Source: Candidatus Heimdallarchaeota archaeon (GTDB lineage: Archaea > Asgardarchaeota > Heimdallarchaeia > JABLTI01). From it: 64,000 nucleotides of DNA. Below, piece after piece: positions 738-62,257 of this stretch. Numbering within the stretch: the first letter of the stretch is position 1; each line of letters starts with the position of its first letter. The DNA is taken from assembly GCA_019056785.1 (NCBI GenBank), contig DXJV01000062.1:9441-73440 (forward strand). The letters run 5' to 3'. A program made the position numbers and the translations under genes. Below the pieces are notes generated by a model. The model saw nothing but the letters and a program-made list of their open reading frames with translations. It was not told the DNA's origin and made no database searches.

Positions 738-3660
738 TAACCTTCTCCTCCTCCACTTTGTAAGCGTCTTTTTTCATTAATCTTTTAATTCTCGCTCTTA
801 CGCTAATGAATGCCGTCAGAATAATGCTCCCAGTTATTGCGATGAAAACACTGCAAACTATTAGTGTGAGCATCCAACTTGTTGGAGAGTATTCCCCAAT
901 AAACGTTGGGCTAATGGCTATTTTTGTCAGGTAGTTTAGGAAGAACAAACCTACCATTAAGCCGCCAATAATTCCTGGAACGATTAGCGTGAGCATTTCA
1001 AAAATGAGTATTCGTCGCAATTGTTTTGAGGAAGCTCCCAACGATAGATAGAGATATAATTGGTTATTTTGATCCAAGAATAATTTTTGGCTGAAAAGGA
1101 AACTAGCTCCAATTGTCATTAATAGGGCTGCCAATCCGCTATATAAGGAGAAATTTACGAGCATTCTAACAGCCGGGCTTGTTAAGCTATCATGATATTC
1201 CTCGTTAAATGTGACCAATTCTTGCAGGTTTTCGTTGTTTTGCACGAGAGCAGTAATCGTGCTCAAGTCTTTCTTGTAATCGGTGAAATCAAGCAACAGG
1301 AATCTGTCAACAGAGAGTCCAGATAAAGTAGCACAAAGGTAGCTTCCGGTTTTCGCACTTACAATTATTTTTAACGGGGCGTTAATATCCTTCCCAATAA
1401 TTGTAATTTTCCGTTCGAAAATAAAGAATGGCCAAGCATCAATAAAATCAGCAATAATTAGTTGTTGATTAAATACTGTTTCACCTTCCTGGACCTTTAG
1501 AGAATATAGGTCGTCTTTTTGGAGCGATAATTCTTTTGCTCGAGTATTTTCAATTAAGCAGCTATTTGTTTGAGTGAGGTAGGTCATTGCTTTTTGCAAG
1601 CTTAAACCAACTTTGCTTGATGGGTGATAAGCAATATTGCCATAGGTACTGGTGTTAATGAAATAGAATGAAAGAACCTGCTGACCCAAGGCATTTAAAA
1701 TTCCTTCCAGTTTGACCACTTCTGTGCTATGAATCGTTGAGGGAAGACTCGAGACAATCTGCGTTATGTTTGCCTTAGGTTCTAGTGAAACCCTGGCATC
1801 TGCGCCTACTGAATACCTTGCTTCATTTGCTTTTGTCGCAATTAAACCAAAAGCCATGCTTAGAAATAGCACTATCACTAACGAGCCTGTGGCTAATGTC
1901 AGAAAGCCTTGTTTTAACCAGCTCTTGTTGATCTTAATATTCTGTAAAGAGAAGCTAAATAGATTGTGATTTCTTCGCCATAGCCTTTTTGCCAGTCGAT
2001 CAATAAAGAGCTGATAGAGGAGATATATTGCCAGTATTGTTATACTGCTGGCAAGAACAATCAGTAGGAAATATGTTGAGCTAGAGAATTGAAATAGCGG
2101 TGAAATTGACTCGAACGGGACAAGAATTACTGTTAGTATTAACCCAAGAGAAACAATGCTGCTTAGAATTACAAAGAGTATTTGTTTTTTCTGTGCGTCT
2201 TTTTTCTTCTCAGTAACTTGTCTTTTTTGACTAATGCTTGCTGTTTGAAAGATAAGGTAAGGGATGCTAAATAATCCAATTATCGCACAATAAACACCAA
2301 CAGTTTGAAGAACAGCAGTGCCGGAAAAGACTATCGGAGTAATGGTCAGAGAAATCAACCGACCTGCTGCTGCATAGCCAAATGGAACTGTCACTGTTGC
2401 AACACCAATTCCCAACCCAAGGCCCAAGAATGCTATGGAGAGAAATAGCACTAATTCTGAGATCAACCACTGTCCTCGTGTAACACCATGGTTTTTAAAA
2501 AACGCCAGCAACCCCTTTTTCCCCGGGAGAAGCTGACTTTGGATATAAAGCAAGAAACAAAGAAACAATACCATGGGAATTGCTAAAAAGGAGAGCCGGA
2601 GCTGCTCTATTCGTAAAGTTATATAAAAGCTCTCAAAGCCATCGCTAGAAATTCCCATCATTTTTATTGAGGTTATTAAAGGACATTCTGCAATCAAATT
2701 ATTGCCTATTTGCTCTTTGAGCTCCAGCAGTTGTTGGAATTCTTCAACAGTATAATCGAGCTTTGCTGTGTCATGAATCACATGAGCATTAACAAAAATT
2801 CTTTTGCTTAGAAAGTTTTCCGGATGTTCAATCGTTTGAAGTGTGCCATTAAAAGAGGACAGTAATTGTCTGAATAGTTTTTCGGTAATGACTAAGCCTG
2901 AGGCGTCCCAACTGAACAGATAGGTATTTAGTGCTTTACAAATTTCAGTATTATCTAAGCCTTCGTAGATTATTTTATGGCTGAAATCCAATGTTACCGG
3001 TGTTGAATACATTTCTCCATTATCTATAACTGCTAAAGTGACATTCTCGCGCTCCAGCAGAATTTTATACGGGAAATTGCCTACCTGGCTAGAGCCCAGA
3101 TCAGTTGTTGAGACCAATAAGATAACTGCCCTGTCAGATGAGATGTTGCTATTCTCCCATGTGGCAAAAGGCGTGAGATATTGAAAGATGTTTTCCGGAA
3201 TAACATTAATTTCGATGCTCCCTAAAATGGTGCTTGCTCCATTGTCCCCCTCTACTAACACTTTGTAGGTATATAACCGCAGGTCAGTAGAACTGAGTGG
3301 GAGTTTGTCCTGCAACGGGCTTTTACTAATCGTTTTCATAATGATGTTGTTAAAGTCTGTTGGAACAGGGTAGCCAACAAACGAATTGTTATTATCAAAA
3401 TAGTAGTTATAAAATGCTAATTCCGCTGAACAAGAAATAGAACTTTCGGTCCAGCCTTCTTCATAAACAAACTTTCTAAGAGCTGCTTCATTTGATTCAG
3501 AGACGATAAAAATCTGTGATAGGAACAAGCTAGCCAAAGATAGCCCAACGAATAGCAAGAAATAGTTTTTTTTATTGCTTCTTACCAAAACCTTGAACAA
3601 ATCTTTAACTAAGAACATTCTTCCCAACAGCTTGAATTTACTTTTCCCACTAAATATCAA
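730..3660 (-). CDS. FtsX-like ABC transporter permease (duplicated architecture)
   Basis: 976 aa; two TM clusters with large extracellular loops; motifs 'EARYSVGADARV' and 'YLSLGASSKQLRRILIFE'. Confidence 0.8.
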   Translation of the reverse strand: MIFSGKSKFKLLGRMFLVKDLFKVLVRSNKKNYFLLFVGLSLASLFLSQIFIVSESNEAALRKFVYEEGWTESSISCSAELAFYNYYFDNNNSFVGYPVPTDFNNIIMKTISKSPLQDKLPLSSTDLRLYTYKVLVEGDNGASTILGSIEINVIPENIFQYLTPFATWENSNISSDRAVILLVSTTDLGSSQVGNFPYKILLERENVTLAVIDNGEMYSTPVTLDFSHKIIYEGLDNTEICKALNTYLFSWDASGLVITEKLFRQLLSSFNGTLQTIEHPENFLSKRIFVNAHVIHDTAKLDYTVEEFQQLLELKEQIGNNLIAECPLITSIKMMGISSDGFESFYITLRIEQLRLSFLAIPMVLFLCFLLYIQSQLLPGKKGLLAFFKNHGVTRGQWLISELVLFLSIAFLGLGLGIGVATVTVPFGYAAAGRLISLTITPIVFSGTAVLQTVGVYCAIIGLFSIPYLIFQTASISQKRQVTEKKKDAQKKQILFVILSSIVSLGLILTVILVPFESISPLFQFSSSTYFLLIVLASSITILAIYLLYQLFIDRLAKRLWRRNHNLFSFSLQNIKINKSWLKQGFLTLATGSLVIVLFLSMAFGLIATKANEARYSVGADARVSLEPKANITQIVSSLPSTIHSTEVVKLEGILNALGQQVLSFYFINTSTYGNIAYHPSSKVGLSLQKAMTYLTQTNSCLIENTRAKELSLQKDDLYSLKVQEGETVFNQQLIIADFIDAWPFFIFERKITIIGKDINAPLKIIVSAKTGSYLCATLSGLSVDRFLLLDFTDYKKDLSTITALVQNNENLQELVTFNEEYHDSLTSPAVRMLVNFSLYSGLAALLMTIGASFLFSQKLFLDQNNQLYLYLSLGASSKQLRRILIFEMLTLIVPGIIGGLMVGLFFLNYLTKIAISPTFIGEYSPTSWMLTLIVCSVFIAITGSIILTAFISVRARIKRLMKKDAYKVEEEKVSG

Positions 3661-3856
3661 GGAATTACTTTAACGTATATTAAAATATTTCTTAAAAGTT
3701 AGACTTCCTTGTTGTTTATTAGTTTCTTGATTATTAACAAAAAAATCTGACAAAAATATCTTTTTTAGGAAAAATTTAAATTAGTTCATCTAATTATTAA
3801 TTTTAAACCATTTATATAGAAAAGAGAAATGGCTAAAAAAAGGAGTGAGTGAATAA

Positions 3857-4432: not shown

Positions 4433-6481
4433 TTGTTAAAGGATATTAAATCAAAAACAGCTATTCTTTCTTTATTACTCTTGTTATCTTTAAATTTCTT
4501 TTTGGTTTTTCCATTAAGTGGAATAGATTTTGTGGTTATCAAATGTTGTGGTAATTGCCAATCCTTGAGTAATGATGGATCTAAACCCTTTGACTATAAT
4601 GTTAACTTGTTATCAACTTGGAGCCAGAATTTTGGTTTAGTGAAGGAGCTACTTCTCGTAGAGAAGGAATTGTTCCTCATTGGTGGTGATAAGGAAATTT
4701 TCATTCTTAATACCACTGATCTTACCTATCCAAAACTGTTAGGGAGTTATCATAATAATTCCGGTGCTCTTACTGCAGTGCATCATGCTGGCCGGCTCTT
4801 TCTTGGTTTACAAAATGGTCTGGAAATTCTTGATGTTCAAAACCACTCTTCTATAGAACAACTTGCTTTTTACGAGACTGCTGCTGTCCATGCTCTTTGC
4901 CTTGACAATGAAACTCTTTTTCTTTCTCGTGGGTCTTTTGGTGTTGAAATCCTCAACATTGCTAATCTCTCTGCAATCACCCCTATCTCCATGATTTCTA
5001 CAGCTGGAGAAGCCCATAAGATTGTTTTGAAAAATGATTGCCTTTTTATTGCAGATTCTGTTAATGGTTTAGAGATTTATAATGTCAGTAATTATCATTC
5101 TCCTGTAAAGATTGCCAATTATACTGATGGAAGCGCTTTTTTTGATCTTGTAGTTGATGAACAATTTGCATATATCCTTGACTCGAGTGGCAATTTTAAA
5201 ATTCTCAATATTACTGACATTCTGGCGATAAAGAAAATAAGTGAAATGTCTTTTGTGCACCCCCAGAAACTGCTTGTAGAGAATGGCACTGTTTTTCTAG
5301 CGGTAAAAGAACAGGTGGTGCTGATAAATTGCACTGATCCATTGATGCCCTCCCAGATAACTATGGTTAATGCTACCAGTGATATTATTGCTTTACGGAA
5401 AAAAAACAGCTGCCTTTTTATGAGCGAAAAAGAGGGCATTGAAATAGTTTCTCTAGAAAATTTCACCTCTCCGGAAATACTTTCAAGGTTTGGTTATAGC
5501 GACATTGAGAAGGTTCTCATTGCCGGTGGCTATCTCTATGCATTGATGGGTGAAGAAGGGGTAGCTATTATTAAAGCAACTGGTCATTCAATACTTCAAG
5601 CTGTAAGTAATTATCGAACTTCAGGAAGAATAGTTGATTTTTGCATTGCCGGTCGTTATCTCTATCTTGCGGTAAAAGATACCGGCGTTGAGATACTTGA
5701 TGTGCTTGAGCCTGAAAACCCACAAAAGGTTGGCGAATATCTCTCGAGTGGCAATGCTTCTAGCCTTGCAATTGCTGATAATTATCTTCTCTTGGCTGAT
5801 GGTGTAGCAGTAAAAGTAATTACGGTGGCGGACCCCAGCCACCCTCAAGAGGTTGCACAGTATGTTCGGTCACTTTTCATACCTGACAAAGTCCGCTTTT
5901 ACGAAGGGAAAGCCCTTGTTATTGACAGGGACAGGATGCAAGTTGCCATTTTAGAGCTAACTTTCTCAACTGCTACGGGCCCCGAATTGCTCTTTTCAGG
6001 GATGATTACCGGCAGTCAATTTATTCATTTTGTTGATGTAGCAATGCAAGAGCACTATATCTATTTAAGCACCGGAAATAGTTTGCAAGTTTATGATAGC
6101 CAGGCTGTAAGTATTAATTCACCAATACTTACTATTGAAAAGGGGAGTTATTATGCCCTTAAAATAACAAACAATTTATTATATGCTATTGGCAATCAAA
6201 ATTTCCAAATACTTACAATAACGGATCTTGAGCAGGTTAATCGAACAGAATTCCCGCTTCTTGGTAGTTTCCTGGTAGATATCGACGTTGAAAAGGAATA
6301 TATTGTCATCGGGAATTTTCTGGCTGGAGACGACCTCTATCTGTTTAATCACACCTATCCTCTAGCAGTAGAGAAGCGAGTATGGCCCTATATTGTCCTG
6401 CCAATTGGTGGCGTAGTTGGACTTGCAATTCCCATAGTTCTCATTGTGAGGTTTCGAAAGAAAAAAACTCTGCATAGCTAA
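4433..6481 (+). CDS. LVIVD-repeat beta-propeller surface protein with C-terminal TM anchor
   Basis: Signal peptide; repeated 'GLEI(L/Y)(D/N)V...P..(L/I)' LVIVD units; C-terminal TM followed by RFRKKK. Confidence 0.85.
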   Translation: MLKDIKSKTAILSLLLLLSLNFFLVFPLSGIDFVVIKCCGNCQSLSNDGSKPFDYNVNLLSTWSQNFGLVKELLLVEKELFLIGGDKEIFILNTTDLTYPKLLGSYHNNSGALTAVHHAGRLFLGLQNGLEILDVQNHSSIEQLAFYETAAVHALCLDNETLFLSRGSFGVEILNIANLSAITPISMISTAGEAHKIVLKNDCLFIADSVNGLEIYNVSNYHSPVKIANYTDGSAFFDLVVDEQFAYILDSSGNFKILNITDILAIKKISEMSFVHPQKLLVENGTVFLAVKEQVVLINCTDPLMPSQITMVNATSDIIALRKKNSCLFMSEKEGIEIVSLENFTSPEILSRFGYSDIEKVLIAGGYLYALMGEEGVAIIKATGHSILQAVSNYRTSGRIVDFCIAGRYLYLAVKDTGVEILDVLEPENPQKVGEYLSSGNASSLAIADNYLLLADGVAVKVITVADPSHPQEVAQYVRSLFIPDKVRFYEGKALVIDRDRMQVAILELTFSTATGPELLFSGMITGSQFIHFVDVAMQEHYIYLSTGNSLQVYDSQAVSINSPILTIEKGSYYALKITNNLLYAIGNQNFQILTITDLEQVNRTEFPLLGSFLVDIDVEKEYIVIGNFLAGDDLYLFNHTYPLAVEKRVWPYIVLPIGGVVGLAIPIVLIVRFRKKKTLHS

Positions 6482-6777: not shown

Positions 6778-7509
6778 TTGACAATTATGGTCGAAGAAAA
6801 TTGGCAAGAGAAAGTGAAAGGACTTATTGAACAAATAAAGAATGAGGATGTTGAAACCCGGCAAGATGCTGCTTGGACTTTACATAAATCAGCAGAAAAA
6901 GGCATTAAAGAAGTTGCTGAAGCTATTCCTGCACTCATTACTGCTATGCATGATGATGATTGGGTTGTCCGGAAAATGTCGATTTTGGCTTTAGGCGTGT
7001 TAAAAGTTGAGAAGGTGATCCCCTCAATAATTGATGTTTTAAAAAACGATTCTAATAATGAAGTTCGTGTTGGTGCTGCAGAAGCATTAGGTGACATGCA
7101 AGCAGAACAGGCTGTTCCTGAATTAATAAACGCTTTGGATGCCAGTTATGAAATGCTTTGCTATGTGGCAATTTATTCATTAAGCAAAATCGGTGAAAAG
7201 GCAATTGCGGCTGTTCCAAAATTACTCGAGTTGTTGGCTACTCCTGAAGAAGTTGGTATTATTCAAACCAATATTTTAACCGCAATGGCTTTAGGTGAAA
7301 TTGGCGATGCATCAGCAATCGAACCTTTAAAAGTCGCTTTAAATAGTGCCGCTACTCATGAGTTTCAATTCACAATAGCCTATTCCTTAGCGCTTCTCGA
7401 AGGTGCTGAAGGTACAGGAATGACTGAGTTAAAAAGAATGAAAGACAACTACGAATTTATTCATGATGACGCCACATTATTTGAAAAATTACTCGAGAAG
7501 CTTAACTGA
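6778..7509 (+). CDS. HEAT repeat (PBS-lyase-like) protein
   Basis: Repeated 'VR..AA.ALG.....A(I/V)P.LI.AL' units. Confidence 0.85.
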   Translation: MTIMVEENWQEKVKGLIEQIKNEDVETRQDAAWTLHKSAEKGIKEVAEAIPALITAMHDDDWVVRKMSILALGVLKVEKVIPSIIDVLKNDSNNEVRVGAAEALGDMQAEQAVPELINALDASYEMLCYVAIYSLSKIGEKAIAAVPKLLELLATPEEVGIIQTNILTAMALGEIGDASAIEPLKVALNSAATHEFQFTIAYSLALLEGAEGTGMTELKRMKDNYEFIHDDATLFEKLLEKLN

Positions 7510-7519: not shown

Positions 7520-7906
7520 CTATGAATCTAAGCCGTCTCCCAATGCCATTTTTTGTCGGTACCGGAATTCGGCTATTCGTTTTCTGTAAGGGTAAAAATA
7601 TTCGAATAGTTCCGGTAAGTCTTTACAATAAACCACCTTATGTGTATCTATTATCTCTGCTTGAATGTATAGTGGCAGTTCTTCGAATAACCACAAGTCG
7701 TATTTTCCTCCTACTTCTCGCCATGCTTTTCGTAGCAACTCCACTTGATCTTTTGTTTTTGGTGCGACAATACAAATATCAATATCACTTCTACTACTGG
7801 CTTCTCCTCGAGCATGAGAACCATACAACAGAATGGCGAGAACTTCTGGGTCCTTTGCTAATTTGGAAAAATCTTTCTTTAATCTTTCAAGTAATTTCCG
7901 CTCCAT
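7520..7906 (-). CDS. Minimal nucleotidyltransferase (MNT antitoxin)
   Basis: 'LYGSHARGEASSRSDIDICIV' = GSx10DxD motif; 128 aa. Confidence 0.9.
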   Translation of the reverse strand: MERKLLERLKKDFSKLAKDPEVLAILLYGSHARGEASSRSDIDICIVAPKTKDQVELLRKAWREVGGKYDLWLFEELPLYIQAEIIDTHKVVYCKDLPELFEYFYPYRKRIAEFRYRQKMALGDGLDS

Positions 7907-8998: not shown

Positions 8999-9076
8999 CT
9001 CTTCTTTTTATAAAAGGTGGAGGACTCTCTAGCGTTTTTTCCTCGAGTGAGTTTGCTCCTTTTTCTATTGTTTTAC

Positions 9077-12585: not shown

Positions 12586-13527
12586 TTGAAGATGAAGAAA
12601 AGCAAATTTCTCCTCCTAGTTACTGTTGCCCTTCTTAGTGTTTTAGTTATGGGTTCCTCTTTTACCCGGGCTGTTTCTCCTGAATGGAATGTTGGTGACA
12701 TCTATCTTTGGGGCACACTAGCACGATCGTATGCTGTTGAGAATGGGGTGAAGACAGAAATCCTAATCACCTCTGAAGTTGAATATAATATCACTGGGAT
12801 TAATACTCTAGACCTCGAGTTTGATGCTTATCGGACAACAACTTCTGGAAGGCAATTCTTGAATGACCGGAGTTATGGTGCGGATGATTTCATTAGTTCT
12901 GCCTTTCATCTAGGCTCCTTTGTAGGTGTTGATTATGAGTGGGATTATGAGCACAATCGAACCGTATTAACCGAGTTTGTTGTTAGTTTAGACCCCTATT
13001 ATCTCCTTGAACCTGATTGGGCAAAGATTAACAAAGCCTTTCGAGACATGCTTAATGGTTCTGAGATTATTGAGACGGTAAATGATCCCTATAGCTCTAC
13101 GGTCTATAACTTTACCCTTCAAGAAGTAATGGACTACTTGAATGTCAAAATCAATGGGAAGAACTCCTTCGCCAGTGGTTGGAACAGTTTCACTGATAGC
13201 CGGACAAAGTGGAGTTTTGAGTTCGATTTGAGTGGTAAAGTAAATATGGGACAGAATAACGGTACCATGATTCTTTATACTCCCTTTGAGAAAGCTACTA
13301 TAAAGCTGGAAATCGAATATACCAAGGGTGGTGTTTTAGAAAAATCCTTGGCTTATCAATATGGAAAAATAACAATCGATGGTGAAACCTCAGAAGGTAC
13401 CGAAGAAGCTAAAATTGCCCTTGGTGGGTTAAAGTCCGTCCAGGCTAATTTTGCCACTTTTGCCGCCTTGGGTGGTCTTGTCTTTGTAGCGGCAATCGTC
13501 CTCATACGAAAACGTCGCCAAAAATAA
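12586..13527 (+). CDS. Anchored surface protein, paralog 3
   Basis: Signal peptide; WDYEHNRTVL and LLEPDW motifs; C-terminal ANFATFAALGGLVFVAAIVLIRKRRQK. Confidence 0.8.
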   Translation: MKMKKSKFLLLVTVALLSVLVMGSSFTRAVSPEWNVGDIYLWGTLARSYAVENGVKTEILITSEVEYNITGINTLDLEFDAYRTTTSGRQFLNDRSYGADDFISSAFHLGSFVGVDYEWDYEHNRTVLTEFVVSLDPYYLLEPDWAKINKAFRDMLNGSEIIETVNDPYSSTVYNFTLQEVMDYLNVKINGKNSFASGWNSFTDSRTKWSFEFDLSGKVNMGQNNGTMILYTPFEKATIKLEIEYTKGGVLEKSLAYQYGKITIDGETSEGTEEAKIALGGLKSVQANFATFAALGGLVFVAAIVLIRKRRQK

Positions 13528-13693: not shown

Positions 13694-16600
13694 ATGGTGG
13701 GATCGCTGAAAAAACTCTTGCTTATACTCTTACTATTCATTACTCCCTTTTCTTCCTTACTCCCAAGAATTATTGGAACTGTTACTGTTTCTCCACCGGC
13801 TATTGCTCGAAAGGCTCAGCCCTTTTCCCCATTTGAGCAATCTCTTCCTTCCACTGAGGGTGGTGTTCTTTGGGAATCTATTCATGAGCTTTCAGGAGAT
13901 ATTACTACTCCTCCGGTGGTTGCTTATCTTACAAGCGCTGAAGACGAGCAAGTTGTTTTTTTGGGTACTGAAGTTGGTCTTGCTTTGATTGCCGTTTCTA
14001 CTGGTGAAATTTCTTGGTTCCATAATACTCCTGGGGCGGTTCTCAGTATTACTGTTGTTTCTGATCTTACTGGTGATAGTGTTAATGAGGTTTTTCTTAC
14101 TCATGATAGTCAATTATTTAATAACACTGAATTGCTGAGTGGTTTGGATGGCTCTCTTCTCTGGTCCTTCCGTCCCACACAAAATTGCTGGGTGGATGGT
14201 CTTGGGTATACTTCCCAAGAGACAAAAAGCTGGTCCAGTTTGGTTCTTGATGATATTTCTTCTGATGGTCAGCCTGACTTTCTGATCACTTCTTACAATG
14301 CGGCTTTTGCTCTTGAAGGTTCGACTGGCAAACTTTTATGGTCCTATTTTGCTTCTGACGATCTCTGGTCCTCTGCTTTACTTGATGATATTGATAATGA
14401 TGGCTTTTCTGATGTTGCCTTGGGCTCTCAGGATGGTTACTTATTTGCTCTTAGTGCTCGTGATGGTTCTCTTCTCTGGCAAGTTCTTGCCACTCAACCT
14501 GAATCGACGGTTATTGACCTTGTTGGCACCATGTGGTTTGATCGGAGTGTTTTTAATGTTCTAACTATTCCAGATGTTTCTAGCGATGGTAAACAAGACC
14601 TTTTAATCACAAATGAGAATGGCTATTGCATTATTTATGACGCAATGAATGGCGAATCTTTGAGTCGGGTGAAAGTCTACTCCCGGACTGGTGAGGTTCC
14701 CCCAGAGTCTTATTATGGCAGCCAGGACTTTTATAATGTAGTTGCTTATCCTCTTTCCTCGAGTAGTTATCCGGGTGCCATTTTAACTGTTGGTCGTTCT
14801 TCTGTCACTTTTGGTAATAGTAGTTTTACGTTGTTAACCCTTGATGGAGATGAATTGTCTATTGAATGGACTAGCACTTCTCTTCCTTCTGCAGACATTC
14901 GAGGGTATGCTGCTTTTGAAGCTGAAGATTTGACTGGCAATTACACCAAGCTTATTACTCCAACAGGGACCGAGAATGAAAACAATATCCGTGAGATTGA
15001 GGTGCGTTCCCTGGAAAACAATTCCATTGTTGCTATTTGGGAGATACCCGTCTTCTGTAGTTCTTTCTCAGAGAATTTTAATTTTATGGAGAACTCCTTT
15101 ACCTACCCGTTTCGTGGCAATTATGCTCTTCTTGTTGATGATTTCAATGGCACTTCCAGCCCTGAAGTGTTAATCTATCTGACAAATGCTGGTCTTTTCG
15201 CTTTGGATGGTGACACAGGCGAGGAGCTTTGGCGTCAAACTTTAGTCCAAAAAGTCTCGATGGAAGCTTTTACTGATGTAAACAAGGATGGGACAATTGA
15301 TTTACTCCGAAAGAAGCTCTTTTACCCTGAGAGCTTTCAACAAGACTATTATTTATATTCAGAGCTGGCTGTTCTTTCAGGTACTACTGGTGAGCTTCTC
15401 TGGAATTTCTCTCTACCTATTAAAGAGCTGGCTCAGATTGGCGGTGGCTTTTCTGATTACATTTTCACTGAAGACCTGACTGGTGATAATGTTAGTGATT
15501 TATGGGTTGTGGCTCAAGAGGGTGACGAGATCGAAGGCTTATTAGATAATGCTTCCAAGATTTACCTTTTGGATGGTACTACGGGCGCTGTTGTTTGGGA
15601 AAAGTTTGCCACTGACCCTTCTTTTGTGTATTCGAAAGAGCAGCTCCGCATTACTTCTGTGGCCACGATTCACGACCAGAATGGCGATAATGTTACTGAC
15701 TTATTAGTTGCTTGTGAACGAAGTATTGTTTATTGTATGAGTGGTCTTACTGGAGAACCGCTCTGGAACCTTTCTCGAGAGGTCCCAAGCTTCTTCCCAA
15801 ATTATCGTAGTTTCATTCCATGGGCGAGTACGATTATTAATGCCGGCAATATTCTTGGCAATGAAACAGAGGATTTTATTTTCATTGGTGATGATAGCAA
15901 GGTTAGAATGGTGGATTCCGATAATTTTTCAACAGTCTTTTGGGAATGGTCCCTTAGTGATTATTGGGTTAATTATCGTAGTTATCTTTTTCAAAGGGAT
16001 ATTACTGAGAATGTTAGTTGTCTGGTGTTCACTGCAAATAGGCCTGAGTCTTCCCATTCTATTATTCTTAATCTCACTTCTGGCGAACCTCTTCTCATTG
16101 CAGAAGGCGACTTAACTCAACAGATTTACAAGCTTTTTGTGGTAGATTTTAACTACGATGGTTTTAAGGACCATATCTTATTCAAGCCCTATAAAACTGC
16201 AGGACTTGATGCGGGAATATATATTATTGATAGTGTTACAGGGTCCTTGTTAAGCTATTACTCTTTACATAAGCCCCAGTATGATACTAACACCTGGATT
16301 TTCGAGCAATTTTTCAGAGCAGGTGTGACTGACTTTTTCGATGTTATAGATGATATGGATGACGATGCAATCCCTGAACTGATTTTAGGTTATTCCATTG
16401 GGCGGTATAATGAAGATGAAGAAAATCAGGGTATGGTCATTGAAATTATTAGTCCTGGAACATTCAAAGCAGAAATGATTAAACGCTTTGAAATTGTGAA
16501 GGAAGAAATAGACCAATTCTCTCGCCCACCACTTTATATTGCTCCCTTTGTCAAAAACCTTGGTGATATTTCTGGCGATGGTCTGTCAGATATTCTTGTT

Positions 16601-23511: not shown

Positions 23512-23868
23512 TTATTCAGAACGTTGTTCCATGATTAATCTTTTCCCTTCTGTTAATACTGAGAGCATTTTTGCCCGTCCTGAATCTAGGAGCCGCCAGA
23601 TGGTTCCTCTCGAGACATTCATTAGCTCTCCGGCTTCAGCTTGATTTAACCCTTCTTGGTCTACTAATCTCATTGCTTCATATTCTGCGATTGTTAATAC
23701 CACCGTTTCCTCGCTCAACAATGGTTCTGGCGTGATTTCTTTTACCTCTGGAAAATCTTCCACCAAGACTTCTTTTGGTGGTCTTCCTCTTTGCCGGCAC
23801 TCCTCATCAATCTCTTCATACCTCCTCCAGCCTATTTTTCTCCCCATCCGTCGTCGATAATTTCTCAT
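23512..23868 (-). CDS. DUF134 (UPF0251) HTH protein, copy 2
   Basis: Same motif as copy 1; start placed at MRNY (23868) by comparison with copy 1 MRDY. Confidence 0.9.
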   Translation of the reverse strand: MRNYRRRMGRKIGWRRYEEIDEECRQRGRPPKEVLVEDFPEVKEITPEPLLSEETVVLTIAEYEAMRLVDQEGLNQAEAGELMNVSRGTIWRLLDSGRAKMLSVLTEGKRLIMEQRSE

Positions 23869-23922
23869 TGTCTTCTCCTCTACTGTTTTTCTATCTTCTT
23901 CTTTCCTTTTTTCCTTTTTATT

Positions 23923-47770: not shown

Positions 47771-48905
47771 TTATGTTGCACAGTAGGAAAGTTTCGCAAG
47801 ATCTTTAGAGAAGGTGAGCAACGCAAGTTTTAATCCTTCCATTTGTGTTAAATAAGGGAAGAACTCTTCTGCAATTTCTTCTGTGGGGATGGACTTTTTT
47901 TTACTGTGAGCAATGAGGATTGTTGCCAGGCTAATTAATTCTCCGGCATTTTCCGCGAGAATATGAGCTCCAACCAATTTTCCCGAGTCTTTCTCCCGCA
48001 AGAGTTTGATGAACCCTTTTGTATTATGTGCTGCTAATGCTTGTGGAACATATTCCATTGGTAAGGTTGTTGTTTCAATACTCATACCTTGTTCTAGTGC
48101 TTTCTATTCTGTTACTCCTATTGTTGCTACTTGTGGTTCTGTAAAAATTACTTGGGGAAGGACAGTGAGGTCTAACACTTTGTTGCTGTTTGTTAAAGCA
48201 TTTTCTGCTGTGATTTTTCTCCCGGCAACAGCGATTGTTTGTTTGTCAATGAAGTTTGCTGTGCCGCGAAGGAGTATGATATTTTCGTTTGAGGTAATCA
48301 CTTCTTTATATTTGCTCTTTCGTAATTTATTCACTAAGTTATCTTTTTGTTGGAGTACTTTTGGCCATGAAAACGAGATACTCTTTGCAGTAATAGCCGA
48401 GAAAGGTTGCTTTTCAAAAATGCATTTAGTTTTTGCCATTTTAATAAGAGTTTTTGAAGGAATGCAACCTATATTGACACACGTTCCTCCGATAATTCCT
48501 TTTTCAATTATAGCAACGCGAAAACCCAGCTCTGCACCTTTTATTGCCGCAAGCCATACCGGTTCCACTTGTGCCAATAACCACAAGTTCATAGTCAAAA
48601 AATTTCAGGGATGCAAATTGTTTTTTTTGTGGAGTAATTTTTTCCCGTGCGGTAATTTTGGCTTGGTATCCCACTTTGGCAATTGCCTTTTTAATGTCCC
48701 CATTATTTACTTCTCGAGTTGTTTGGATAATGCCTGTGCCTTTTTGCCAACCCGGAATATTAATTGCAAGTACTCCTTCCATAGCTTCTAAAGCGTTTTT
48801 AATATGTGTAACACAAGAAGAGCAAGTTATACCTTGAATTTCTAGGGTTATTGTTTCTATTTCTTGTATTCGTTCATTCTTCTTTTGATTTTCTCTGGAT
48901 TTCAA
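47771..48905 (-). pseudogene. merA: Mercuric reductase pseudogene
   Basis: HMA domain GITCSSC; [13 protein letters not shown]; C-terminal LSYCA (canonical LSCCA); frameshift near 48570; central NADPH domain deleted; in-frame TAG at 48104-48106. Confidence 0.85.
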
Positions 48906-50664: not shown

Positions 50665-52248
50665 TCAGTGATAGATGTTTTCATTGTTGTAGTAGTGGCT
50701 TTTCTTGCACAGTCGTTTAGCGACGGTTATAAAAGGCAGTGCTCCTAATAATAATGGAGCTATAACCCCAAAAATACTGAAAAAGAAGTTCTTCACTGGG
50801 TACCATGTTATTATTCCCAAAAAATCTATTACAGAAATTATTGTTAGTCCTAAAAAGATTAATCCAATAACTGTAATTATAAACGCTATAGTAAATAAGG
50901 GGATTTTCTTATTCCAAGCAATTTTTCCTTTCTTCAGTTTATTCTGCCCTAATAATCCTAGACTAGTCGGCAGTAAAAGAAAAGGAGTTGTTAACCCTCC
51001 AATTACCATATAAAAAATAACATGCCAGAATGTGAGTTTGAACTTGCAAATTTTTTTCGTGTAATATGTAGTTATGGTGAAGATTATTCCATAGATTACC
51101 CATATAATTAATGTTAAAGTTAATGCTGCAAACTGATCAAGGTTTACAGCTCGAATGACAGGCACTTTACATAAATAGAGAAGGGCATAAAAGAACGCTG
51201 TAATGTACATTGTTGCTACCACGAAAACGAGGGTCGAAGTAATTAAAAAGTCAAAAGTTTTTCTAACAGATTTTCCACGACCAAATAATTTTCTGGGATT
51301 ATAAATAGCCGCTGCTGTTTGTCCCTTCGTCCAACGGAACATTTGTGACATCATGTGATCAAAAGACTCGGGAAGGAGAGAATGAGCCCCAAATTCATTT
51401 AACCAATAGCCTTTCAAACCTTTTCCAGCGAGAGTAATTGTATGTTCAAAATCCTCGAGCAATTTTCCTTCTGGTAATGGATAACTGAATTCCCTCCTAA
51501 AACAAGCCGTTGTTCCACAGAAGAGTACTGTCCCGAGCCGTCTTTTTCCTGCTTCTGCTAGGAAGAATTGATATTGTGACATTGCTTGCCATACTTGTAC
51601 GGGGTTTTGTACATTTCTAAAGGAATACATTGCTTGAACAAAAGCAAATTCAGAATGGTGTTCGAGAATAGACACAAATTTAGTTAGAATTTCAGCTGTT
51701 GGAAGATGATCGACATCGAACAGTGCAACATATTTTCCTTTTAATGTTGGTAAGATGAGATTTAACATTCCTGCTTTGAAGTTCTGGTTTTGTTGAAAGA
51801 AATATTGATAGTTGTATTTTTCTGTGATTGCTTGACATTTTTTTGCCAATGATTTTTCTGTGCTATCATCTGCTACCCAGAGCTTGAAGTTTGGATAAGT
51901 GACTGCTTGAAAGCCCTGTAAAGTTTCTTCTAAAATGACCGGATTAACATTGTGAATTGGTATTACTACATCAACTTGTGGATAGGTTTTGAGTGGCTCA
52001 AGTTGATATTCTACTTTTCCAATATCCAACAATCCATCTAACAATTGGACCATAAAATAAATCGCATAAAAAGGACCAAAAACCTCGAAAAAGAGTGCGA
52101 AAATATTCAAAATAAATCCTTTAATGCCAAGAAGGTTGTAATTTTGAATTAACAAAGCTAATGACCAGTTAAAATAGGTTAAAAAAAGGAGAAATAACCC
52201 CCAACCAAAGCAATGATTTATGTTTGAAAGTAGTTTTTTTCTGGTCAT
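50665..52248 (-). CDS. Processive GT2 glycosyltransferase (cellulose-synthase-like)
   Basis: ADD, KAG, DVD, FCGT, (L)ED and QMFRW (QxxRW) motifs; 2 N-terminal and several C-terminal TMs. Confidence 0.85.
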   Translation of the reverse strand: MTRKKLLSNINHCFGWGLFLLFLTYFNWSLALLIQNYNLLGIKGFILNIFALFFEVFGPFYAIYFMVQLLDGLLDIGKVEYQLEPLKTYPQVDVVIPIHNVNPVILEETLQGFQAVTYPNFKLWVADDSTEKSLAKKCQAITEKYNYQYFFQQNQNFKAGMLNLILPTLKGKYVALFDVDHLPTAEILTKFVSILEHHSEFAFVQAMYSFRNVQNPVQVWQAMSQYQFFLAEAGKRRLGTVLFCGTTACFRREFSYPLPEGKLLEDFEHTITLAGKGLKGYWLNEFGAHSLLPESFDHMMSQMFRWTKGQTAAAIYNPRKLFGRGKSVRKTFDFLITSTLVFVVATMYITAFFYALLYLCKVPVIRAVNLDQFAALTLTLIIWVIYGIIFTITTYYTKKICKFKLTFWHVIFYMVIGGLTTPFLLLPTSLGLLGQNKLKKGKIAWNKKIPLFTIAFIITVIGLIFLGLTIISVIDFLGIITWYPVKNFFFSIFGVIAPLLLGALPFITVAKRLCKKSHYYNNENIYH

Positions 52249-52837: not shown

Positions 52838-54454
52838 TCATTTTGTTTTTTTGCTTATTATTCGTTCAGGAAAGATTCCTTGATCTGCTTTTCGCATATG
52901 GTAGATAGCGCTTGAGCTATAAACCAGTGCAGTGAGAAGAGCATGAGCAAAGAAGGTTACAGTCAAAAAGTACTTGGCTTGTAGTATAAACAGCACTAGA
53001 ATGTGGAGGGTGTAGATGTTTCTTCTACCATCAAATCTTCGAAACAGCCGGTCAAATTTGCTGCTATCTGCTAAGGAGAGCCCCACAACTAAATGATATT
53101 GCATTGAAACGTGACGATTAAAGGAGTCTAGAATGAGAAAGGCGATGAGGAAAATTATCCAGGGAAGCAGTGGTTGGTTTGTGATTGCAATTGTATACCA
53201 TCCTGCTGCGAAATAAATAGTTTGTTCATACAGCTGATCAAAACTGTGTTCGATGTTTCCGCTAATTGTTAATCTTCCCCTTACTCGAGCCAATTTGCCA
53301 TCGACTCCGTCCAAGACATTTACTGCGATTAGCAAGACAAAGGCAATCCATGGGAGGGCTGTGGTGATAGTCGGATGCTTATTTCGTATATATGGTGCAG
53401 TTAACAGGCAAGCTGCCAGACCAAAAGCTAAGAGATTAACAAGCATTGTAATATGGTTTGGCGTCAAAGGGCTATTGGCAATTGTAAAGGTTACCATGTG
53501 CTCCAAAGGGCGGTTAAAATACCAAGCAATAAGGTCTAATGTGCCTTTTTGGGTCAATTTCACTAAATTCCATTTTACCCGTAATAAATCTCTCTTAGTC
53601 TCGAGTTTGAAATAATGGACAGGTAAATTTCGTCGCATAGAGGGAACATAGACAGGAATGGTCGAGAGTTTGATGCTCGCGGTATTTGTTTCAGCGAGAG
53701 TTTTAATAATGTTCCAAACTGGTTCCTGCTCTTCTTTCATCTCGCCAGAATTTTTCTCAGTTTCATTTTGGAAACTTTTTCTCAAGAAAAGCTTTGTAAC
53801 TCTACAAAGCGGAAGATAAGAATTAACCTTAAGTTTACTCGAGTCTTCTGGTCGTTTAGTTTGCCGGTCTTCCTCTACAAGTAAAGATAAAGCCGTTTTC
53901 TTTTCTTCAGTCTTATTAACATGTTCCAGGGAGTGTTCTTCTAAAATTGATTGAATAATTCGTTTATCAAATAACCATTGCCCATCCATAAGGAGTACTG
54001 TGGTACCATCATTACTTTCTATCTCCTTGTTAAAAAGGCTTGGAGTATTAAGTAGCCTTTTAGTCGAGGAAAAGTGAAATGTGATTTTCTGTTTAAATGG
54101 TATATTCCTCGATTTTAAGATGCTTTCTTCCACAAGGGCTAAAAGTGATTCATTCTTTGATGTGAGGAAAATTTCTTTAACACCAACTTCTTGAAGGAGA
54201 TTGACCTGGCGTTCAATTAACGATTGTTTTGCCAGCTTTCTTTCCAAATAGAGACTTCGCACTTTTTTATTGGAGGTATTCTTTGTTCTTACTGACTCTT
54301 CATTTGACATTTCAGGTAAATAAATTATCACTTGGAGGGTATTTTTTACGTATAGGTTGTTTTCTTCTGCCAATCTTTTCACCTCGAGGCTTTTTGCTGC
54401 GTTTTTGAAGAAAGACGAACGGGGAGAGGGGTGAAGAATTACCATAAAAAGCAA
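52838..54454 (-). CDS. CDP-alcohol phosphotransferase (DIPPS-like) with degenerate N-terminal NTP-transferase domain
   Basis: 'FNRP', 'TPNHIT', 'LDGVDGKLARVR...G.IEHSFD'; exact start uncertain. Confidence 0.75.
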   Translation of the reverse strand: MLFMVILHPSPRSSFFKNAAKSLEVKRLAEENNLYVKNTLQVIIYLPEMSNEESVRTKNTSNKKVRSLYLERKLAKQSLIERQVNLLQEVGVKEIFLTSKNESLLALVEESILKSRNIPFKQKITFHFSSTKRLLNTPSLFNKEIESNDGTTVLLMDGQWLFDKRIIQSILEEHSLEHVNKTEEKKTALSLLVEEDRQTKRPEDSSKLKVNSYLPLCRVTKLFLRKSFQNETEKNSGEMKEEQEPVWNIIKTLAETNTASIKLSTIPVYVPSMRRNLPVHYFKLETKRDLLRVKWNLVKLTQKGTLDLIAWYFNRPLEHMVTFTIANSPLTPNHITMLVNLLAFGLAACLLTAPYIRNKHPTITTALPWIAFVLLIAVNVLDGVDGKLARVRGRLTISGNIEHSFDQLYEQTIYFAAGWYTIAITNQPLLPWIIFLIAFLILDSFNRHVSMQYHLVVGLSLADSSKFDRLFRRFDGRRNIYTLHILVLFILQAKYFLTVTFFAHALLTALVYSSSAIYHMRKADQGIFPERIISKKTK

Positions 54455-57614: not shown

Positions 57615-57645
57615 TAAAAGGAGCAGTAATTTCGAGGAATCCTTC

Positions 57646-58894: not shown

Positions 58895-59578
58895 GTGATC
58901 TCCTTGAAATTTCAATGTCCCATCTGCCATGAAGAACTACAAGAAAATAATAGTAACGTAGCTTGTACCTATTGCGGGAAAGTTGAGCACGCTGAATGGC
59001 TATACCCAAATAAGCACTTTGTATGTGAGGCCTGCCGTCTTGCTGAACCTGAAGAAATAACTTTACGAGTATGCAATAATACTAAAAGCAAGGATCCTTT
59101 TGAACTGGCAAACTTGATCATGCATCATCCCACCTTTCGGGAGCATGGCAAAGAGCATCATCTAATTGTTGCACCGGTAATTATTACTGCATTAAAAAAT
59201 GCGGGCCAAATTACAATTGATACGCGAAGGAATAAAATTGCTATACGACGTGCAAAAGAAATGCCTTATGGTATTTGCGGATCGAGAGGCGATTGCGGAG
59301 CAGCTGTTGGAGTTGGAATAGCAATCTCGATAATTACTCGAGCAACATATCTATCAAATAGCGAGCGTTCTCTGACCATTGAAGCAACAGGTCGCTCACT
59401 CATTGATTTGGCAAAAAGAGGTGGACCTCGTTGTTGCAAAGAAAGTGTCTACTCGAGTATTCAATCTGCCTTGAAATTTCTGAATGAGAAAGAGATGATT
59501 CATTTTTCTGAGCCAGTCTGGAAATGTGAGTTCAAAGATATGGAAGGTTGCAAGAAGGAGGATTGTAATTATTACTAA
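58895..59578 (+). CDS. DUF5714 domain Cys-rich protein
   Basis: Zn-ribbon N-terminus; 'HGKEHH', 'CGSRGDCGAA.G', 'GGPRCCK'. Confidence 0.75.
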   Translation: MISLKFQCPICHEELQENNSNVACTYCGKVEHAEWLYPNKHFVCEACRLAEPEEITLRVCNNTKSKDPFELANLIMHHPTFREHGKEHHLIVAPVIITALKNAGQITIDTRRNKIAIRRAKEMPYGICGSRGDCGAAVGVGIAISIITRATYLSNSERSLTIEATGRSLIDLAKRGGPRCCKESVYSSIQSALKFLNEKEMIHFSEPVWKCEFKDMEGCKKEDCNYY

Positions 59579-60647
59579 TCAAAATAATTTTTTCCAGGCA
59601 CGATTATTAATTGACGATTTTCGCGATCCTTACAAACATTTTGCTGTAGAAGAGGGCATTTTGCGACAAGTAGCGGACGGTGTTAGTCCTGCCACTTTGC
59701 GAATTAGGAGATTTTATCCTTCAGTATGGATTGGTGTTAATCAATACCTAGAAGAGGATGTTGATCTTGCGTATTGTCAACGAGAACAAATTCCAATTGT
59801 TCGAAGGCCTAATCCTGGGGGAGCGGTTTATCAAGATGAGGGAAGTTTCTGTTATTCGTTTTTCTTTCGAACCAAAAGCTTTTTGCAACATTTAGGAATT
59901 AAGGACACAAAAAAACTTTACTCGCTCTTTGGGCGCGTAATAATTGAAACCATTGGAACATTTGGCCTAAAAGCAGATTATTCCGGTGTGAATGATGTTA
60001 CTATCAATAATCGGAAAGTCTATGGCTCTGCACAACTTGAATTAAATGATGCTTTTGTTCATAGTGGGACTTTTCTTGTGAAAACAAACATCGACAGACT
60101 GGCAAATACTCTAAGACCATCAAAATTAAAATTTATAGACAAAGAGTTTACGAATGTTAAAGAACGAGTAATCAATTTTTCTGACGCACTTCAGAGAGAT
60201 ATTTCAATTAAAGATGTTTATCATGTGCTTATTCAGAAAATGGCTGAAATTTTGCGGATAAATTTTAGTCCTCCGACAAAAGAGTTGTTACTCGAGGAAG
60301 AGAAATTAATGGAGATACTTTACAAAACAAAATACGCAACCGCAGAGTGGAATTATCGAGAGAAACCTAAACTTGAGAAGACAGTTTCAATGAAGACAAA
60401 AAGTGGGATTATAACCCTTTCAGTTACTTTAGATAGTGCAATCATTAAGGAAATGGTTCTTAGTGGGGATTTCTTATTTGCCAAGAAAAAGGAACAAGAT
60501 GAATTGATAGAGCAATTGATCGGACAGACAATAACAACTGCGTTGAAAAAGATCTCCGTTAGCAGCTTATCTGAGGAAATAAAAAGGGCATTAACAATTT
60601 TGTTTACTGAAGTTAAAGGTGATGAATGCTGTCAAGGAAAAAAATGA
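59526..60647 (+). CDS. lplA: Lipoate-protein ligase A (with C-terminal accessory domain)
   Basis: 'VRRPNPGGAVYQDEG', 'NDV...RKVYGSAQ', 'HSGT', 'KY...EWN', 'GDF'; start uncertain. Confidence 0.85.
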   Translation: MSSKIWKVARRRIVIITNQNNFFQARLLIDDFRDPYKHFAVEEGILRQVADGVSPATLRIRRFYPSVWIGVNQYLEEDVDLAYCQREQIPIVRRPNPGGAVYQDEGSFCYSFFFRTKSFLQHLGIKDTKKLYSLFGRVIIETIGTFGLKADYSGVNDVTINNRKVYGSAQLELNDAFVHSGTFLVKTNIDRLANTLRPSKLKFIDKEFTNVKERVINFSDALQRDISIKDVYHVLIQKMAEILRINFSPPTKELLLEEEKLMEILYKTKYATAEWNYREKPKLEKTVSMKTKSGIITLSVTLDSAIIKEMVLSGDFLFAKKKEQDELIEQLIGQTITTALKKISVSSLSEEIKRALTILFTEVKGDECCQGKK

Positions 60648-60943: not shown

Positions 60944-60985
60944 GATTATACTTTACAGCTAAATTTGTTCCCAAAAGAAGACTGT

Positions 60986-62257
60986 TTAAAAATTTTCAAG
61001 GAGTGGTTTTTCTCTCTGCTTTTTTGGAAAGAAACTTCTCAAACAGCACCGCAGAACTAGAGTCGCTTGGCAAACTTTTCGAATAAAATGAAAGTCTAAT
61101 TTATCAATTGTATCTGCTTCAGTATGATAAAAAGGATAGCGAAAATTCGCTGTGTCGGTTACCATTATTGCTGGGATACCATATTTAAGAAAAGGAGCAT
61201 GATCAGAACGCAATGAATCCCTGACCTTCACTGCAAGAGTCTCGAAATTATACGGCAAACAATAGTTAACATAGGGAAGTTTTATATTTGCCTTTTTACA
61301 TTGCTGGCAGAAGAATTTTGCCAGGGCATGCGATTGTTTATCGCTAATTATCCCAATAAAATTCCCAATCTCTTGTCGCAGATTGGCCCGGTATTTTGGG
61401 AAAAACTTGAAAATTATTGAAGGGATAAGCTGTGAGTGTTTTCTTGAAGAGGTATAACCAATAGTCTCAAGATTAATTACTCCAAGAATGTTGCGTTTTT
61501 CTTTCATTGCCTTTTCTACATACTTTGTACTGCCAACGAGAGCTGTTCTGCCAATCCAATCAGTAGGATTCTTCAATTCCTGCAAGAGCTCCAAGAGATA
61601 GCTGAAATAGGCTTGCTCTCGCTCGTCCAAATCATCCTTGAATTTTTCAAAAGTGAGTTTAGCCCCCTCTGTATAGCTTTTTCCGGTGGAAGTCAACCGC
61701 CAAAATTGCTTTAGAAAGTTTTTAACGAGTTGTTGGGTGTGGAACCGCAAATACCTGTCTTTTTTGTCTACTAAACCCAATTCTAATCGCTTCTTGAAAA
61801 GACGGGAATAAAAGATCGGGTGGGTTTCCTCCTGTGTGAAACTAACAAATCGCAAACAAAAATTGTCCATTTTTTGTCTTGCAAGGATTCTGGCAACTTC
61901 GAGCATGGCAACCACGCCTGAACCATTATCATTTGCTCCCGGACTATTTTGGACAGTATCGTAATGGCTGGTGATGAGTAATGCCGGCTTTTTCTCATCG
62001 CCAAGGATGCCCTCTACATTTTTGAATTCGTGAGGAATGCCATCAAAAGTAAAGACTTGTTCTTGAACCTGCAGACCGTAGGCTTTTAATTCCTTCCTAA
62101 TATAGTCTGCTGTTTCCGCCAATTTCTCAGGATTGACTTGAAAATGTCTTATACCTTCTATTGCTAAGCTATGCTGATAGAGCCGCTCGAGATCAACCCG
62201 ATTAATAATTTCTTCTTGCAACAGTATTCTTACCCCAAAAAAGATAGACTCTTGCAA
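60986..62257 (-). CDS. M28 family peptidase
   Basis: 'SHYDT...PGANDNGSG', 'EE', 'NLETIG', 'RSDHAPF', 'YHT..DT'. Confidence 0.85.
   Translation of the reverse strand: MQESIFFGVRILLQEEIINRVDLERLYQHSLAIEGIRHFQVNPEKLAETADYIRKELKAYGLQVQEQVFTFDGIPHEFKNVEGILGDEKKPALLITSHYDTVQNSPGANDNGSGVVAMLEVARILARQKMDNFCLRFVSFTQEETHPIFYSRLFKKRLELGLVDKKDRYLRFHTQQLVKNFLKQFWRLTSTGKSYTEGAKLTFEKFKDDLDEREQAYFSYLLELLQELKNPTDWIGRTALVGSTKYVEKAMKEKRNILGVINLETIGYTSSRKHSQLIPSIIFKFFPKYRANLRQEIGNFIGIISDKQSHALAKFFCQQCKKANIKLPYVNYCLPYNFETLAVKVRDSLRSDHAPFLKYGIPAIMVTDTANFRYPFYHTEADTIDKLDFHFIRKVCQATLVLRCCLRSFFPKKQREKPLLENF

Follow-up and report, generated by a model that had tools for sequence, protein, structure and literature searches.

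CTCGAG is an over-represented palindrome of one Heimdall-group family of Asgard archaea

Introduction

The function of iterated palindromes has been an open question since HIP1 was described in 1995, the proposals being that they are a by-product of repair, that they organise the chromosome or that they aid gene transfer. HIP1 (GCGATCGC), the highly iterated palindrome (HIP) of cyanobacteria, is 8 bases long, enriched 15- to 300-fold and distributed quasi-periodically at long range, 10-90 kb (PMC4390886; PMC5861425). An explanation of the by-product type was proposed by Elhai for the cyanobacterial HIPs (PMC4390886), and Xu, Lawrence & Durand argued for selection on HIP1 (PMC5861425). Alternate HIPs of single cyanobacteria, such as GGCGCC in Calothrix PCC 7103, rCCGGy and GCsGC, reach observed/expected ratios (o/e) of about 15-50 (PMC4390886). 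The present work concerns a shorter word, CTCGAG, in a 64-kb stretch of DNA (hereafter the window, at its full length) from a Candidatus Heimdallarchaeota archaeon, and in the genome and family to which that stretch belongs. The surplus of CTCGAG is a trait of one Heimdall-group family of Asgard archaea. No published report of CTCGAG enrichment in Heimdall archaea was found, nor one tying CTCGAG to HIPs.

By analogy, the surplus may be regarded as a weak archaeal counterpart of HIP1. It shares with HIP1 that it concerns an exact palindrome, that it extends genome-wide over all reading frames and intergenic DNA, that it marks a whole lineage and that codon usage does not explain it. It differs in being another word, of 6 and not 8 bases, in an archaeal setting, in its modest enrichment (3.5-4.6x) and in that no cognate methyltransferase was found. 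Moreover, HIP1 sites are conserved in all frames, whereas CTCGAG sites are not robustly kept above matched controls and turn over fully at long distance. The alternate HIPs are comparable as short (5-6 bases) palindromes that replace HIP1 as the dominant word of a lineage; they are, however, strain-level, each with a gained matching methyltransferase, whereas CTCGAG is family-wide and weaker.

Two further systems offer partial parallels. The uptake sequences of Neisseria (DNA uptake sequence, DUS) and Pasteurellaceae (uptake signal sequence, USS) are lineage-specific words present at ~0.5-1 per kb in genes and intergenic DNA, and are thought to be built by a drive, with turnover of positions. 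CTCGAG resembles them as a lineage-specific word in genes and between them whose positions turn over, but DUS and USS have 9-12 bases, are non-palindromic, are enriched hundredfold or more and often form inverted pairs at terminators, whereas CTCGAG has 6 bases, a 4.6x enrichment and few close pairs; no uptake machinery has been linked to CTCGAG. In E. coli, Dcm/Vsr very-short-patch (VSP) repair reportedly biases CCWGG-related words (findings attributed to Merkl et al. 1992 and Bhagwat & McClelland 1992). The likeness is that of a sequence-specific repair process whose side effect would be a shift in the frequencies of one short palindrome and of its neighbour words; the differences are given below, where repair is considered.

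The CTCGAG Excess in the Window and in the Source Genome

The window lies on contig C51 of the metagenome-assembled genome (MAG) G000, which comprises 2.87 Mb in 102 contigs with 38.6% GC and is 82.5% complete and 4% contaminated. A sequence-only reading of the window had counted by hand at least 43 CTCGAG sites where about 6-7 were expected. The exact count is 44, from 1539 to 62186-62191 and at positions identical to those it listed, and 100 dinucleotide-preserving shuffles gave 6.9 +/- 2.6 sites with a maximum of 13, none reaching 44. Its hand counts of the control palindromes (about 10 GAGCTC and about 3 GTCGAC) also held, the exact numbers being 10 and 3. The sites fall in all three frames: 20 as CTC-GAG (hyphens mark codon boundaries), 8 as xCT-CGA-Gxx and 12 as xxC-TCG-AGx, with 4 outside called genes.

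The whole source genome holds 1,731 CTCGAG sites and is the densest in CTCGAG of its family. CTCGAG ranks first of the 4,096 hexamers by composition (o/e 4.61), and the Markov comparison suggested by the sequence-only reading gives the same rank, with 1.62 and z 28.7 under the maximal-order model (fourth-order, Markov-4). That reading had also named TCGA frequency as a possible full explanation, and the subwords speak against it: TCGA has an o/e of 1.17 and CG of 0.82, and the octamers that contain CTCGAG contribute nothing (o/e6 about 1, flank information <=0.05 bit). An origin of the signal in a subword was rejected on these grounds; the signal spans exactly six bases. The other palindromes with a TCGA core behave differently under Markov-4 (TTCGAA 1.07, GTCGAC 1.00, ATCGAT 1.29).

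Among the 4-base palindromes of the same genome, CCGG is the most over-represented (o/e 1.67; maximal-order 1.56), and the most avoided are CTAG (o/e 0.31), ACGT (0.33) and GTAC (0.38).

Restriction to One Family

The family of the source genome (family f1) was represented by 12 genomes of two genera, and 71 genomes drawn from six sister families in the same class formed the contrast set. GAGCTC, the reversed word, served as control count in each genome. The ratio CTCGAG/GAGCTC ranges over 2.3-3.5 within the family (12 of 12 genomes) and over 0.30-1.35 in the sister families (71 of 71). The comparison of related genomes proposed by the earlier reading thus shows a lineage-specific trait, present in 12/12 members and 0/71 sisters. 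Over seven loci of the family the o/e of CTCGAG is 4.0, and in a 400-kb piece of the relative G010 (GC 33%) CTCGAG is the top hexamer, at 3.6x. In the low-GC relatives the surplus lies mainly in the frames xCT-CGA-Gxx and xxC-TCG-AGx, and all frames exceed the constrained nulls.

The phylogenetic boundary is clean despite the weakness of the signal, and its sharpness implies that the responsible factor can be found by comparative genomics. The signature could also be used for binning and contamination checks of MAGs of the family and for flagging recently acquired DNA.

Positions 24705-45433 of the window have 99.92%-identical contigs in three other public assemblies (ENA ERZ23491060, JGI 3300005265 and ENA ERZ27227317). 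This identity indicates that the same species was sampled repeatedly, and it is too close to inform on site turnover.

A Property of the DNA, not of Codon Pairs

For the analysis of coding DNA, 2,339 genes were called in the source genome with a crude caller, covering 83% of it. A synonymous shuffle, which preserves each protein sequence and the codon usage of each gene, yielded 533 +/- 23 CTCGAG sites against 1,553 observed. The surplus is present in each frame: 969 observed against 327 for CTC-GAG (3.0x), 344 against 172 for xCT-CGA-Gxx (2.0x) and 240 against 34 for xxC-TCG-AGx (7.1x). A codon-order shuffle, which destroys the amino-acid order, gave 503 sites, and the closeness of this value to the 533 of the synonymous shuffle implies that the proteins have not been bent to fit CTCGAG. 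Frame-specific Markov-4 models left residuals of 1.75x, 1.31x and 1.98x, with CTCGAG the first of all hexamers in two frames, and in the table of Leu-Glu codon pairs CTC-GAG stands at 1.64 and CTC-GAA at 0.62.

The same surplus is found where there are no codons. The remainder of the genome outside called genes holds 176 CTCGAG sites where 43 are expected. Strict non-coding DNA, lying outside every open reading frame (ORF) of at least 50 codons (92.5 kb, GC 28%), holds 19 against 4.8, CTCGAG being there the top of all words of the same composition. Hence a codon or dipeptide artefact was rejected; the surplus is a DNA-level property. The judgement of the sequence-only reading that codon-pair bias was unlikely to be the sole cause is borne out by the three frames together with strict non-coding DNA, and the codon- and dipeptide-preserving shuffle, which it named as a possible refutation, leaves the enrichment in place.

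Sites are Poisson-like across all contigs and even along genes, with no deserts beyond expectation. An origin in repeats or mobile elements was rejected on account of this spacing and of the uninformative flanks. Pairs of sites less than 30 bp apart are scarcer than expected (14 against 32).

A further explanation supposes no dedicated recognition: lower-order biases, namely CTAG avoidance, codon context and context-dependent mutation, would sum up on a palindrome, the avoidance of CTAG forcing CT-CGA and disfavouring CTA-GAG. CTAG is indeed strongly avoided, and among the codons that follow xCT the share of AGA falls from 22% to 10% and that of CGA rises from 26% to 36%. The YTCGAR words are all somewhat elevated (TTCGAA 1.48, TTCGAG 1.63), and Markov-4 lowers the CTCGAG surplus from 4.6x to 1.6x, because the pentamers CTCGA and TCGAG are themselves 1.8x over-represented. 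However, a synonymous shuffle with the CTAG count of each gene capped at its observed value gave 578 sites against the 1,553 observed, and the same constraint in four relatives gave 44/74/4.5 against 74/233/37. CTAG avoidance therefore contributes to the surplus without explaining it; as the main cause it was rejected, its contribution being ~10% in the source genome and larger in xCT-CGA-Gxx of the low-GC relatives. The 4x surplus is equally present in strict non-coding DNA, CTCGAG remains the top hexamer under Markov-4, both genome-wide and frame-specific, and TTCGAA, GTCGAC and ATCGAT lack a comparable Markov-4 surplus. A sum of lower-order biases is thus improbable as the origin of the signal.

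Turnover of the Sites

Site conservation was analysed following the logic of Xu et al. (PMC5861425). Between the source genome and the distant relative G010, 234 orthologs were compared, with a median amino-acid identity of 58% and an identity at 4-fold sites of 0.34, which is saturated. The aligned blocks hold 183 and 97 CTCGAG sites, of which 5 are shared, against 4.4 expected if the two genomes were independent given the amino-acid context; the Jaccard index (J) is 0.018 for CTCGAG and 0.026 for control palindromes. Since the shared sites are at chance level at saturating divergence, the positions turn over completely while the surplus persists.

At shorter distance the sites appear better kept. 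In the two closer pairs (G008-G010 and G006-G007; 283 kb of unpolarised alignment, 85-88% DNA identity), J is 0.40 for CTCGAG, 0.20 for hexamers with four G or C and 0.14 for other NNCGNN words, CTCGAG ranking 4th of 348. With the amino-acid context held constant, J is 0.62 for xCT-CGA-Gxx against 0.36 for other NN-CGA-N (p 2e-5), and 0.36 against 0.15 for xxC-TCG-AGx, which is borderline (p 0.06).

These values favour weak selection for function, in which a protein specific to the family would bind or mark CTCGAG, the word serving in chromosome organisation, as an epigenetic mark, or as a recombination or DNA-uptake signal; the deficit of close pairs agrees with it. Nevertheless, this second-ranked explanation is considered unlikely. 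CTC-GAG sites are no better kept than other CpG-spanning hexamers (J 0.17 in both) and are kept worse than other Leu-Glu hexamers. Per occurrence, the closest frame controls nearly equal the identity of CTCGAG in xCT-CGA-Gxx (0.77), with 0.67 for CT-CGA-A and 0.75 for AA-CGA-A. Sites in this frame may also look conserved because neither CpG transition is silent there, each giving an amino-acid replacement or a stop codon, and because the change of CGA to AGA is blocked by CTAG avoidance. The chance-level sharing at saturating divergence, the Poisson-like spacing, the flanks without information and the unaltered proteins likewise speak against a function of the individual sites. The evidence for selection on individual CTCGAG sites is weak, unlike that for HIP1.

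CpG transitions amount to 0.137 per occurrence at CTCGAG and to 0.185 at other NNCGNN hexamers in the closer pairs. A C-to-T hotspot at the inner cytosine was rejected on this basis, the numerous CTTGAG and CTCAAG partners of lost sites showing ordinary CpG behaviour. In the same 283 kb, C-to-T and G-to-A changes at CpG make up ~40% of the single differences in NNCGNN hexamers as a whole. They occur in a family in which 11 of the 12 genomes yielded no C5 methyltransferase, and may reflect hypermutable CpG or general AT-biased transitions.

A Proposed Drive in Repair or Recombination

Palindromes of 6 bp are classically the targets of proteins that recognise DNA as dimers. The explanation ranked first, to which we give a probability of roughly 0.4, is a molecular drive in repair or recombination exerted by a postulated CTCGAG-recognising protein. 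Such a protein, specific to the lineage, would act while DNA is repaired or recombined and would recognise CTCGAG or mismatched forms of it, and changes that lead to CTCGAG would be fixed more often than changes that abolish it. The resulting pressure would be directional, persistent and genome-wide, and would act on the positions that vary freely, that is, on synonymous sites and intergenic DNA. Individual sites would be lost over long times and the surplus re-created in every lineage of the family, so that it would be a by-product rather than a collection of sites with a function. In a wider formulation, CTCGAG might be the footprint of a DNA system specific to the family, either such a drive or an organising or marking protein, which arose independently of HIP1; this is put forward tentatively. 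If it were true, phyletic profiling could name the gene, and the family would offer a second and tractable way into the HIP question, now 30 years old, in the archaeal group that is closest to eukaryotes. The inference of the sequence-only reading that an archaeal system creates or maintains CTCGAG stands in part: the signature is lineage-specific, hexamer-exact and at the DNA level, but the methyltransferase link that accompanied it was not supported, as set out below.

Several observations weigh against a drive. In the lineage of G008 and G010 the non-coding surplus is weak (7 against 5.1, small counts), and so is that of CTC-GAG (1.3-2x), where a uniform drive predicts otherwise. The hexamer counts of the source genome show no single-mismatch neighbour of CTCGAG to be clearly depleted. 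CTTGAG/CTCAAG, for which a drive of the VSP type predicts depletion, have an o/e0 of 1.28, an o/e2 of 0.85 and an o/e4 of 1.11, that is, a depletion that is slight at most. VSP repair furthermore requires a C5 methylase and Vsr. Vsr (PF03852) was not found in the source genome, the control being matched in 3 genomes; C5 methyltransferase (PF00145) is absent from it and present in 1 of the 12 genomes of the family, with the control matched in 9. The XhoI-family nuclease (PF04555) had no match in the source genome or in the 12 genomes of the family, although the positive-control genomes were also silent. The fate of the candidate enzymes, described next, adds to these points.

Candidate Enzymes

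The HIP model proper would have an orphan methyltransferase specific for CTCGAG or TCGA which, with methyl-directed or VSP-type repair, builds or protects the sites. It has a precedent in cyanobacteria, whose HIPs are accompanied by methyltransferases recognising them (PMC4390886). The source genome carries several N6/N4 and gamma-class methyltransferases. Their target specificities are inferred, and the incomplete state of the genome (82.5%) leaves room for the model. Two of them, MT1 and MT3, are persistent orphans whose identity of 72-73%, against a median of 58% over genes, exceeds that of three quarters of the genes.

MT1 (263 amino acids (aa), motif IV TSPPY; contig C36:4598-5389(-), L001:1480-2271, P0001) is of the N4-methylcytosine (m4C) type and has an N4-cytosine methylase as its nearest solved structure. 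It is syntenic genus-wide between a bactofilin-domain gene and a 175-aa gene and has no nuclease neighbour; 8 of 10 congeners retain it, at 70-75% identity. A homolog 63% identical to MT1 lies on a Micrarchaeota contig tail to tail with a nuclease of the MjaV family. MjaV cuts GTAC. Because of this pairing MT1 is probably specific for GTAC and not for CTCGAG. GTAC is under-represented in the source genome, and an archaeal survey lists persistent orphan methyltransferases that produce m4C in GTAC (PMC10609329). CTCGAG shows no enrichment at the loci that carry MT1 homologs in other phyla.

MT3 (237 aa, DPPF, CcrM-like; contig C57:25335-26048(-), L003:1462-2175, P0002) is an orphan N6/N4 methyltransferase that adjoins a steroid-5-alpha-reductase-like gene and has no nuclease neighbour. 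It is kept at 72-77% identity within the family. It is also present, however, in the non-enriched sister families, and homologs of 51-67% identity occur in Asgard archaea, Methanomicrobiales, Nitrososphaerota and several bacterial phyla. In about 80 named loci of the MT3 type the o/e of CTCGAG is 4.0 for the seven members of the family, 1.4 for other Asgard-labelled loci and 0.63 for the rest (744 kb). MT1 and MT3 are like the persistent orphan methyltransferases of archaea in being vertically kept without a nuclease neighbour (PMC10609329). The targets of those enzymes are 4-5 bp palindromes and usually avoided (PMC10609329), whereas CTCGAG is enriched, and neither the MT1 nor the MT3 family tracks CTCGAG richness.

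MT6 (891 aa) combines an Eco57I domain with a TaqI-like specificity domain. In favour of the model, its catalytic core comes closest to M.BseCI (ATCGAT) and M.TaqI (TCGA), and synteny of its locus extends through the genus. On the other hand, identity among the members of the genus is no more than 34-39%, its best matches are type IIG restriction-modification enzymes and the second genus yielded no copy; MT6 was rejected as the family factor, being a fast-evolving defence enzyme of the type IIG kind. MT5 (C91, gamma-class), MT2 (C42) and the fragments on the tiny contigs C24 and C71 were rejected since, within the family, they are limited to the source genome; the gamma-class fragment of C24 was not found in the 5 genomes of the family examined for it. 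Therefore none of the methyltransferases traced in relatives (MT1, MT2, MT3, MT5, MT6 and the C24 and C71 fragments) follows the trait, which goes against the methyltransferase link proposed from the window. With Vsr and C5 methylase lacking as described, and with CpG transitions at CTCGAG not above those of other NNCGNN words, the HIP model proper is quite unlikely.

MT2 is an N6/N4 methyltransferase (contig C42:12261-13175(+), L002:1423-2337) with a distribution opposite to that of the CTCGAG trait: eight of the nine sister-family genomes sampled carry a member of its family, at 45-53% identity, whereas the 11 other genomes of family f1 have none.

Contig C32:9857-12476 carries side by side a Dam-type methylase, a 206-aa ORF and MT4, an N6/N4 methylase, and is probably a DpnII/MboI-like GATC restriction-modification island. 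Its surroundings hold 0 CTCGAG in 5 kb, which fits recently acquired DNA.

Repair proteins were considered as well. MutS was rejected as a discriminating factor, as it is present in all families of the class. NucS2, a second NucS/EndoMS-like gene (259-269 aa, ~20% identical to canonical NucS), is full-length and syntenic in 11 of 11 other genomes of the family (loci L184-L194), and no second NucS copy was found in the 9 sister-family genomes examined. In the source genome, however, it is cleanly deleted (contig C15:1042-3307), the flanking genes lying ~280 bp apart. NucS2 is thus not required, given its deletion in the genome densest in CTCGAG, and was rejected as the cause.

Sites and Other Features of the Window

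The 44 CTCGAG sites of the window are listed in Table 1.

Table 1. Positions of the CTCGAG sites in the window, with reading frame and surrounding gene or ORF (strand in brackets).
Position	Frame	Context
1539..1544	xCT-CGA-Gxx	gene 730-3660(-)
1748..1753	xxC-TCG-AGx	gene 730-3660(-)
5182..5187	xxC-TCG-AGx	gene 4433-6481(+)
5743..5748	xxC-TCG-AGx	gene 4433-6481(+)
7225..7230	CTC-GAG Leu-Glu	gene 6778-7509(+)
7492..7497	CTC-GAG Leu-Glu	gene 6778-7509(+)
7807..7812	xCT-CGA-Gxx	ORF 7520-7906(-)
9042..9047		outside called genes
12814..12819	CTC-GAG Leu-Glu	gene 12586-13527(+)
14758..14763	xxC-TCG-AGx	gene 13694-17188(+)
15774..15779	xCT-CGA-Gxx	gene 13694-17188(+)
16700..16705	CTC-GAG Leu-Glu	gene 13694-17188(+)
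17362..17367	CTC-GAG Leu-Glu	gene 17194-18300(+)
17983..17988	CTC-GAG Leu-Glu	gene 17194-18300(+)
18138..18143	xxC-TCG-AGx	gene 17194-18300(+)
18175..18180	CTC-GAG Leu-Glu	gene 17194-18300(+)
18435..18440	CTC-GAG Leu-Glu	gene 18291-19349(+)
18659..18664	xxC-TCG-AGx	gene 18291-19349(+)
23609..23614	xxC-TCG-AGx	ORF 23512-23940(-)
25788..25793	CTC-GAG Leu-Glu	gene 25323-26174(+)
26080..26085	xCT-CGA-Gxx	gene 25323-26174(+)
27028..27033	CTC-GAG Leu-Glu	gene 26167-27075(+)
27455..27460	xxC-TCG-AGx	gene 27288-28457(+)
28293..28298	CTC-GAG Leu-Glu	gene 27288-28457(+)
31271..31276	CTC-GAG Leu-Glu	gene 28607-33910(+)
31304..31309	CTC-GAG Leu-Glu	gene 28607-33910(+)
35434..35439		non-coding, immediately follows stop codon of gene 34705-35433
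36277..36282	xCT-CGA-Gxx	gene 35528-36379(-)
39442..39447		outside called genes
42486..42491	CTC-GAG Leu-Glu	gene 42195-43295(+)
42971..42976	xxC-TCG-AGx	gene 42195-43295(+)
43136..43141	xxC-TCG-AGx	gene 42195-43295(+)
46415..46420	CTC-GAG Leu-Glu	gene 46109-47311(+)
46992..46997	xCT-CGA-Gxx	gene 46109-47311(+)
48713..48718		within mechanical ORF 48006-48791; no gene accepted by caller there
51454..51459	CTC-GAG Leu-Glu	gene 50665-52248(-)
53284..53289	xCT-CGA-Gxx	gene 52838-54454(-)
53600..53605	CTC-GAG Leu-Glu	gene 52838-54454(-)
53838..53843	xxC-TCG-AGx	gene 52838-54454(-)
54383..54388	CTC-GAG Leu-Glu	gene 52838-54454(-)
59337..59342	xCT-CGA-Gxx	gene 58895-59578(+)
59452..59457	xxC-TCG-AGx	gene 58895-59578(+)
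60291..60296	CTC-GAG Leu-Glu	gene 59526-60647(+)
62186..62191	CTC-GAG Leu-Glu	gene 60986-62257(-)

The window also encodes several very large, secreted-looking repeat proteins (28607-33910, 13694-17188, 20074-23145 and 4433-6481). The first of these, a 1,767-aa protein on the forward strand, contains subtilase S8, CARDB and clostripain C11 peptidase domains, an FG-GAP beta-propeller and TSP3 repeats. The gene at 46109-47311(+) encodes a 400-aa protein with a C-terminal RING-finger (Pfam zf-RING_2, Prok-RING_1), a eukaryote-like signature domain.

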